Assembly: GCA_964478235.1 (NCBI GenBank)
Contig: CAYZGX010000006.1
Location: forward strand, 1 to 60,050
Origin: an uncultured Gammaproteobacteria bacterium
GTDB taxonomy: Bacteria > Patescibacteriota > Patescibacteriia > Magasanikbacterales > GWA2-37-8
Length of the DNA: 60,050 nucleotides
Direction of reading: 5' to 3'
Positions 32,819 to 32,884 of this stretch are shown one piece after another; within the stretch, counting starts at the first letter, position 1, and each line of letters starts with the position of its first letter. The notes beneath the pieces are model-generated. The model did no database searches, had not been told where the DNA came from, and was given only the letters and a program-made list of their open reading frames with translations. Both the position numbers and the translations under genes were made by a program.

Positions 32819-32884
32819 TACGATTCTTTCCCTGGTAGGGAAACTGATGAGTCTCTGATTGTGTAGACAAAGACGAAAATCGTA
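32819..32884 (+). ncRNA. Hammerhead self-cleaving ribozyme, type III topology (predicted cleavage 3' of C32826)
   Basis: Stem III UACGAUU(32819-25)/AAUCGUA(32878-84). H17=C32826. Stem I UUUCCC(32827-32)/GGGAAA(32838-43), loop UGGUA. Core CUGAUGA(32844-50). Stem II GUCU(32851-54)/AGAC(32871-74). Core GAA(32875-77). A15.1-U16.1 is present. Confidence 0.8.

Follow-up and report, generated by a model that had tools for sequence, protein, structure and literature searches.

Does a short intergenic segment in the genome of an uncultured bacterium of the Patescibacteriota encode a self-cleaving RNA, and if so, to which of the neighbouring genes does it belong? The question is raised by a stretch of 60,050 nucleotides (nt) of the contig CAYZGX010000006.1 (assembly GCA_964478235.1), referred to here as the window, in which an earlier note made from the letters alone had described a complete type III hammerhead ribozyme on the coding strand, at positions 32819-32884. 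The segment is preceded by two small open reading frames (ORF-A and ORF-B) and followed by a third (ORF-C). The description is borne out in the current analysis by a match to the Rfam family RF00008 and by covariation at the syntenic position in seven further lineages and, as judged from these comparisons, the element is a genuine type III hammerhead for which catalysis is predicted.

Sequence, fold and conservation of the hammerhead

The element comprises 66 bases and has been delineated by alignment of the hammerhead core, the Rfam match, folding and covariation in an alignment of homologues (A3). The plus strand at 32819-32884 reads UACGAUU-C-UUUCCC-UGGUA-GGGAAA-CUGAUGA-GUCU-(16 nt)-AGAC-GAA-AAUCGUA, a string identical to that of the earlier note in its core elements, their order and the sequences of the stems. 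Stem III, as read from the sequence, pairs 32819-25 (UACGAUU) with 32878-84 (AAUCGUA) and supplies the A15.1-U16.1 pair of the family, formed by A32878 with U32825. The cleavage-site triplet U32824-U32825-C32826 is UUC, which fits the N-U-H rule with H17 being C and not G. The segments CUGAUGA (32844-50) and GAA (32875-77) correspond to C3-A9 and to G12, A13 and A14 of the hammerhead core, and stem II is formed by 32851-54 (GUCU) and 32871-74 (AGAC) around a loop 2 of 16 nt at 32855-70. The scissile bond is predicted from the core alignment to lie 3' of C17 (C32826), between 32826 and 32827 of the plus strand. By the chemistry of the family, the expected products would be an upstream RNA ending in ...UACGAUUC with a 2',3'-cyclic phosphate and a downstream RNA starting as 5'-OH-UUUCCC....

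Both the Rfam alignment and the minimum free energy (MFE) fold give the topology that defines type III, with stems I and II capped by loops and the 5' and 3' ends residing in stem III. The three-helix junction is the MFE structure of the isolated 66-mer and also its centroid structure. Stem I had been described before as a helix of 6 base pairs (bp) closed by UGGUA; the helix (UUUCCC at 32827-32 and GGGAAA at 32838-43) is present, and in the fold it can extend to 7 bp (32827-33 with 32837-43) through the additional pair U32833-A32837, leaving a GGU triloop as the cap. The same fold adds an inner UUGU/ACAA helix to stem II. The lone 66-mer has an unremarkable energy z-score (-1.1), and the case for a hammerhead therefore rests on the core and the covariation rather than on folding stability.

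The match to RF00008 (Hammerhead_3) covers model positions 1-54 of 54 with a score of 41.8 bits. Its E-value is 4.8e-8 in a search of 301 nt and 9.6e-6 for the 60-kb window with both strands and 4227 families, so that the covariance-model check proposed in the earlier note has returned a significant match, though one below the Rfam gathering cut-off of 48.5. Matches to other families of the hammerhead clan (CL00010) scored lower and were dropped. No other ribozyme match was found in the window on either strand when all the Rfam families were considered by E-value, and no second hammerhead is present on either strand; each of the related loci likewise has one. A scan of the window at the Rfam gathering thresholds reports a 16S fragment and three tRNAs only and misses the hammerhead.

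The same ribozyme has been identified at a syntenic locus (methyltransferase ... EamA, glycoside hydrolase, tRNA-Val) in seven further lineages of Candidatus Magasanikiibacteriota, making eight lineages in all: the window, L002, L056, L014, L015, L016, L017 and L018, where the L-numbers denote related loci. Exact and degenerate patterns of stem II and its loop found no match in viral, metagenome or GTDB genome collections, and the relatives were reached only by means of probes from the flanking methyltransferase and EamA genes; a third close variant, L056, was found through a relative of ORF-B. The named loci among those fetched from GTDB genomes with the methyltransferase probe belong to Candidatus Magasanikiibacteriota or Magasanikbacteria, of the Patescibacteria group. 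Contigs L001-L009, which carry ORF-C, have the gene order and the hammerhead as in the window. At the syntenic position, matches to RF00008 below the threshold are seen in L002 (41.9 bits), L014 (43.3), L018 (38.0), L017 (35.1) and L015 (30.9), and four of the five loci L014-L018 are returned by Rfam as full-length matches of this kind (30.9-43.3 bits). A simple type III descriptor identifies one hammerhead each in L014, L015, L016, L017 and L018, between the methyltransferase and EamA genes, and none outside this position in about 0.6 Mb of fetched loci.

Alignment A3 consists of 7 distinct hammerhead sequences, in which CUGAUGA, GAA, C17, A15.1-U16.1 and G10.1-C11.1 are invariant; the A15.1-U16.1 pair (columns 11-105) is UA in 7/7. 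CUGAUGA and GAA are unchanged in L056 as well, and none of the related genomes shows the altered core that had been named as grounds for abandoning the assignment. The covariation in stems I-III that had been proposed as a check is seen in 10 of the 18 stem pairs, which are changed on both sides with pairing kept. Paired cells make up 96% of A3, against 33-51% when the partners are slid by 1-3 columns, and the covariation score was reached by 0/500 shuffles. Among the close relatives, the window and L002 share 86% identity over 5 kb with about 26% divergence at third codon positions. When the window, L002 and L056 are compared, variable columns number 7/22 in the loops and 0/45 in stems and core (Fisher p = 2e-4), the probability of no change in stems and core being about 1e-6 at the rate of third codon positions. 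Given the invariant core, the compensatory changes and the confinement of substitutions to the loops, the element is shown by these comparisons to be a selectively maintained hammerhead under purifying selection.

The loops are not free of pattern. Loop 1 is a triloop in the homologues (GGU, AGU, GAU or UAA), while loop 2 has a semi-conserved UGUUyUGA-like motif and is 15-17 nt long, except in L016 and L018, where it carries insertions of about 50 nt. In hammerheads, a tertiary contact between loops 1 and 2 allows rapid cleavage at physiological Mg2+; inspection for a Watson-Crick pseudoknot revealed no convincing one.

Position in the transcript and probable role

The distance from the stop codon of a preceding gene of the ORF-A or ORF-B type to the hammerhead is 77-184 nt in every lineage, the type being assigned by eye in L016 and L017. 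In the window the intervening region folds into a long GC-rich hairpin (32757-32816, plus strand) of about 25 bp, with a GAAA tetraloop and the base GGGGAGGGG/CCUCUCCCC, which ends 2 nt before stem III. A long hairpin ending 2-6 nt before stem III is present in the window, L002, L014, L015, L016 and L018 by folding and in L056 by inspection of the sequence, and its arms differ across lineages and yet stay complementary. L017 is the exception, having an AT-rich hairpin adjoining the hammerhead and the long hairpin further upstream. A MAFFT alignment of these hairpins gave no informative consensus with RNAalifold, and the claim is based on individual folds.

Downstream, a conserved leader of 114 nt (32885-32998, plus strand; alignment with L002, fold) connects the hammerhead to ORF-C, a gap previously given as 115 nt, and together with 32827-32884 it would form the 5' untranslated region (UTR) of the downstream product. 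The arrangement is different in three lineages. The terminator scan places intrinsic terminators 2-8 nt after the ribozyme in L016 (10971-11004) and L018 (11094-11114), and L015 folds into a 13-bp hairpin with a U run directly after the hammerhead. In these three loci the terminator is followed by a -10-like box and then by an unrelated housekeeping gene (EamA or FolD). In the window, a strong hairpin (33450-33490, plus strand; fold z = -5.4) is found after ORF-C, where the cassette transcript probably ends; the weak T run accounts for its not being flagged by the terminator scan, and it is followed by the EamA gene's extended -10-like box, TGTGCTATACT.

The element is assigned to the upstream gene, as part of its 3' UTR, since ORF-C is missing, and a terminator lies within a few bases of the hammerhead, in L015, L016 and L018. 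We consider it probable that the hammerhead functions as a self-cleaving 3'-UTR element, which fixes the 3' terminus of the upstream mRNA and insulates it from the downstream RNA. The element would be transcribed as the 3' UTR of an ORF-A/B mRNA, presuming co-transcription. Once stem III is complete, the RNA would fold and cut after C32826 and, folding being co-transcriptional, cleavage could take place before any competing downstream sequence is made. The upstream mRNA would then terminate with the long hairpin followed by 10 nt (GG and UACGAUUC) and the 2',3'-cyclic phosphate, and a hairpin with such an end should resist 3' exonucleases and tailing. The downstream RNA, having a 5'-OH and then the stem I hairpin at its start, would be physically uncoupled from the upstream message; it would be the ORF-C message here, and the ribozyme body with its terminator in L015, L016 and L018. 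A separate stability or translation fate for ORF-C would therefore be a lineage-specific consequence. The proposal that cleavage separates the ORF-A/B transcript from ORF-C and leaves the latter with a structured 5'-OH end thus holds for the window if the genes are co-transcribed, whereas ORF-C is not the conserved partner of the ribozyme, the three lineages just named having a terminator and no ORF-C.

As a tentative possibility, the chromosomal hammerhead may be part of a fixed module, comprised of a three-hairpin leader, a small ORF, a long 3' hairpin, the hammerhead and a terminator, in which maturation of the 3' end by the ribozyme replaces the endonucleolytic 3'-UTR processing for which other bacteria use ribonucleases (RNases), and releases a hairpin-capped, cyclic-phosphate-ended message and a free ribozyme-terminator RNA.

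A number of points weigh against the 3'-UTR role. The RF00008 score falls short of the gathering cut-off in the window, and it does so in every lineage; this cut-off is an operational curation threshold and not a structural feature, and the RF00008 alignment traces the shortfall to inserted bases, of which loop 1 has 4 and loop 2 has 8. Both the cleavage activity and the co-transcription with ORF-B are features that we infer. Folds in longer context swap stem III or parts of the core for alternative pairings, which involve sequence past 32884 or a non-conserved upstream stretch and are not conserved in L002. Where a terminator follows right after, the ribozyme would cut only a few dozen bases before the natural 3' end, with no obvious advantage, and 5'-OH and cyclic-phosphate ends could either stabilise or destabilise RNA in these organisms. 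Many related genomes are without the ribozyme at the same locus, as are homologues of ORF-A elsewhere, and it must accordingly be dispensable.

A role centred on ORF-C is the most evident alternative, in which a polycistronic A-B-C RNA is split between the cistrons and ORF-C is given a 5'-OH, hairpin-capped leader with its own stability or translation rate. Such a role has been proposed by Perreault et al. for hammerheads flanking genes (PMC3088659). It is in keeping with the presence of ORF-C on the same strand after the hammerhead, with no terminator between, in the window, L002 and L014, and with the good conservation of the 114-nt leader. We regard it as unlikely, because ORF-C is absent in L015, L016, L018 and apparently L017, the first three of these having the terminator and the independently promoted housekeeping gene instead, and it is the upstream gene and the hairpin that are the conserved neighbours. 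The very loci that lack ORF-C could point to the release of a small RNA (sRNA), since their 3' fragment (ribozyme body, linker and terminator; about 100-140 nt in L015, L016 and L018) is a compact, highly structured, terminator-ended product which might be a 3'-UTR-derived sRNA made by self-cleavage and not by RNase. The UGUUyUGA motif of loop 2, or the large insertions in L016 and L018, are not needed by the catalytic core and could be read in the same way, but loop-loop tertiary contacts for fast cleavage explain the conservation of loop 2 equally. As the 3' product in the window lineage is a whole mRNA and neither a target nor a conserved single-stranded seed was identified, release of an sRNA appears quite improbable.

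The two remaining explanations concern the origin of the transcript and of the element itself. Boxes resembling a promoter, TTGCAT-N17-TATGCT (32773-32801), are found within the upstream hairpin and would have the ORF-C transcript begin some 10 nt ahead of the hammerhead, which would then trim the leader in the manner of RiboJ, a synthetic insulator made of a hammerhead and a hairpin placed between promoter and gene. Both hexamers and the 17-nt spacing are identical in L002 and L056. The hexamers, however, are the arms of the inner helix of the hairpin (GCAUA/UAUGC), which explains their symmetry, the site was not reported by the promoter scan, and L014, L015, L016 and L018 keep the arrangement of hairpin plus hammerhead with hairpins that have no such boxes; a promoter of this kind is held to be highly improbable. 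That the motif is due to chance, or is an inactive relic or was left behind by a mobile, viroid-like or retrozyme element, could be argued from the score under the curated Rfam threshold, the odd composition of the locus (55-69% GC against about 45%) and the lack of the ribozyme in many relatives. Against it stand the covariation and the invariant core across eight lineages, with substitutions in the loops only, and the single hammerhead per locus with neither flanking repeats, integrase or reverse transcriptase around it nor similarity to phages or plasmids, so that a relic or a chance motif is scarcely credible. The 3'-UTR element thus remains the reading that we favour.

Three other features of the spacer were considered and rejected. 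A regulatory switch by pairing of the hammerhead with the region before the ribosome-binding site of ORF-C, as suggested by the full-spacer MFE structure, and one by an outer helix (32738-44 with 32884-90) both have partners that are non-complementary in L002 and absent in other lineages. A direct repeat CA(T/C)ATTTGACGAA flanking the hammerhead (32776-32788 and 32894-32906) is probably due to chance, its second copy not being found in L002.

The relatives without the ribozyme have also been compared. L022, L029, L036, L045 and L027 have no ribozyme, yet keep a small GC-rich ORF, a long hairpin and a terminator, and in L045 and L036 the hairpin is equivalent to that upstream of the hammerhead. 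At the equivalent place these hammerhead-less relatives have no other ribozyme class at the Rfam gathering level and no match to the hammerhead model of this study; no hammerhead accompanies the ORF-A homologues of other genomic contexts either. The ribozyme is thus an optional module, inserted after the small gene's 3'-UTR hairpin and before the transcription unit ends. By identity of the flanking radical-SAM protein, the nearest lineages all carry the ribozyme and the more distant ones are patchy, which suggests an ancestral ribozyme with losses.

Genes and composition of the locus

The conserved frame of the locus is made up of a radical-SAM gene on the minus strand, a methyltransferase, sometimes a glycosyltransferase, a variable region of 1-3 kb, the EamA transporter, a glycoside hydrolase and tRNA-Val, and synteny of these flanks extends to more than 20 loci. 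In many lineages the variable region exceeds the genome in GC content. Searches around the element found no integrase, reverse transcriptase or flanking repeats, and those for similarity of the locus to phage or plasmid DNA found none; the repeats around the island are only the leaders of two genes described below, with no long direct repeats. What had been called a GC-rich island is indeed GC-rich, and is refined here as a clade-wide locus that is variable but syntenic and chromosomal, neither phage-like nor a recent mobile insertion.

ORF-A (31761-32192, plus strand; 143 amino acids), the first gene of the cassette, belongs to a rare family distantly related to DUF3228, with 14 representatives among 1.84 billion clusters; its structure model (predicted local distance difference test, pLDDT, of 82) gave weak matches to hypothetical DUF3228 proteins only. 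ORF-B (32387-32737, plus strand) encodes a basic protein of 116 amino acids with a CGC...H..C motif, its 3' UTR holding the hairpin and the hammerhead; its structure model (pLDDT 49) is too poor for use. ORF-C (32999-33430, plus strand; 143 amino acids) has one other 90% cluster only (87% identity) in 5.8 billion proteins, and in the index of that size the relatives of ORF-B and ORF-C are near-identical ones only. No assignment was obtained for the three ORFs from Pfam, PHROGs, PADLOC or NCBIfam.

Substitutions relative to L002 are biased to third codon positions in ORF-A and ORF-C, which argues that these are real genes. For ORF-B the differences number 22/19/32 at codon positions 1/2/3, a weak bias to position 3, with 17 synonymous and 28 non-synonymous codon changes, and its status as a putative gene is supported mainly by homologues. 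The three ORFs are lineage-specific and GC-rich, and they belong to small families that evolve fast. ORF-A-like genes are found in the window, L002 and L015, ORF-B-like genes in the window, L002, L014 and L018, and ORF-C-like genes, which alone of the three follow the hammerhead, in the window, L002 and L014. L015 has a member of the ORF-A family directly before the hammerhead, and L014 and L018 have a homologue of ORF-B ahead of it. In L016 and L017 the ORFs that precede the hammerhead had no significant match and resemble ORF-A and ORF-B only by eye. A protein of 200 amino acids (P0011) has an ORF-B-like N-terminus (W..VG..P.DI..LPC.C ... W.H..C) fused to an ORF-A-like C-terminal domain, and this fusion suggests that ORF-A and ORF-B are functionally linked.

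Each of ORF-A and ORF-B has in front of it, on the plus strand, about 110 nt of structured leader. The ORF-A leader (31644-31760) contains a long hairpin with the loop UAAGAGAGAU, a second hairpin at 31702-31728 and a third one, ACCCUGAGGAGGGU, enclosing the Shine-Dalgarno sequence. The ORF-B leader (32283-32386) is homologous and has the same three elements, with changes in the arms that keep the pairing. The arms of the long hairpin differ and are still complementary (ACCAAUCAG/UUGAUUGGU against ACCAGCCAG/UUGGCUGGU) around the invariant loop UAAGAGAGAU, and the second hairpin also covaries. The same leaders are present in L002 (about 1395-1504 and 2030-2136), L056 and L014 (about 8930-9028), and analogous three-hairpin leaders occur ahead of small genes in L015-L018. 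No match to Rfam was obtained for the leaders of ORF-A and ORF-B, which could represent an undescribed cis-regulatory RNA or a palindromic operator.

Mini-islands of 62-73% GC with small ORFs have been identified in L022 (5400-5830), L029 (5420-5815) and L036 (5600-5830), in genomes of 38-44% GC. They lie at the same junction between methyltransferase/glycosyltransferase and EamA, which is a clade-wide hotspot for GC-rich, fast-evolving small genes. In the closest GTDB genome (L013), with a methyltransferase 96% identical, the contig (CAYUBH010000053.1) ends 27 bases past that gene, where the cassette begins; the cassette may be lost from genome bins owing to its composition.

Further along the window, a gene for an M1 aminopeptidase or leukotriene-A4-hydrolase-like protein (35671-37548; 58-65% GC) is situated between tRNA-Val(tac) (35511-35585) and an amino-acid permease (37682-38812). 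It looks laterally acquired next to the tRNA, because a permease-sized gene directly follows the tRNA in the L001/L002 lineage. Beyond the permease is a small HTH_17 (excisionase-type) gene (38850-39197, minus strand), with a sigma-70 family gene next to it in the matching ENA contig and no integrase seen nearby. The window begins with the 3' part of a 16S rRNA (1-758) followed by tRNA-Val(gac) and tRNA-Ile(gat) (all within 1-1547), which are not the usual Ile/Ala spacer tRNAs; 23S rRNA was not found anywhere in the 60 kb, and the rRNA genes therefore appear to be unlinked.

Comparison with known systems and significance

The element shares with the members of RF00008 (clan CL00010) the 11-nt core, the NUH cleavage site (UUC), the A15.1-U16.1 and G10.1-C11.1 pairs, the capped stems I and II and the open stem III. 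It differs from them in its unusually long loop 2, in scores of 30.9-43.3 below the gathering cut-off and in a host of the candidate phyla radiation (CPR). The hammerheads of Magasanikiibacteriota escape standard annotation since all of them score below that cut-off.

Bacterial hammerheads have been described mostly in prophage-like DNA, often as multiple copies near integrases and in contexts varying from case to case (PMC3088659). The present element is similar to those in lying between small same-strand genes without known function and in having mRNA processing as its likely role. It is unlike them in being single, chromosomal, syntenic and apparently vertically inherited, with no integrase or PHROG genes, and in its fixed position relative to the upstream hairpin and, in three lineages, to a terminator. 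Viroid-like and retrozyme elements have ribozyme copies at both ends of a unit or in both polarities, neither of which is seen here.

Among ribozymes located after a coding region, a discontinuous hammerhead in the 3' UTR of rodent Clec2 genes was reportedly described by Martick et al. in 2008. Twister ribozymes have been studied in 3'-UTR reporters (PMC6765202). The element resembles both in being a self-cleaving motif past a stop codon that would remove the natural 3' end. Those cases lower expression by removing a stabilising 3' end, whereas here a strong hairpin stays upstream of the cut and a protected 3' end is predicted. As in RiboJ, a hammerhead bracketed by a hairpin would free the downstream RNA from upstream sequence, RiboJ being engineered and at the 5' end and the present element natural and after the coding region. 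The glmS ribozyme is likewise a self-cleaving motif embedded in a bacterial mRNA and its 5'-OH product has a distinct decay fate, being degraded by RNase J1; it has another fold, lies in a 5' UTR and depends on a metabolite, whereas there is no sign of a ligand for the hammerhead considered here. Degradation of the glmS cleavage product by cellular RNases has been documented, and for bacterial self-cleaving ribozymes other than glmS the biological roles are described as largely elusive (PMC6765202). Roles in mRNA processing and 3'-UTR effects have been proposed, and are not established, for bacterial hammerhead and twister ribozymes (PMC3088659; PMC6765202).

The current analysis therefore describes a known ribozyme class in an unusual, non-phage, well-defined chromosomal context of CPR bacteria; a search of the available library found no paper linking hammerheads to CPR or Patescibacteria. 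In contrast to the prophage cases, one hammerhead is held at one syntenic position, within a fixed architecture, across divergent Magasanikiibacteriota. A whole clade of true hammerheads lies under the Rfam gathering score, and CPR genomes are probably under-annotated for ribozymes. The relatives in which everything is kept except the ribozyme are in effect natural knock-outs and, together with the conserved architecture, make the hypothesis of 3'-end definition and insulation directly testable. If it is true, maturation of the 3' end would be a concrete and conserved role for a bacterial hammerhead that is cellular and not phage-related.

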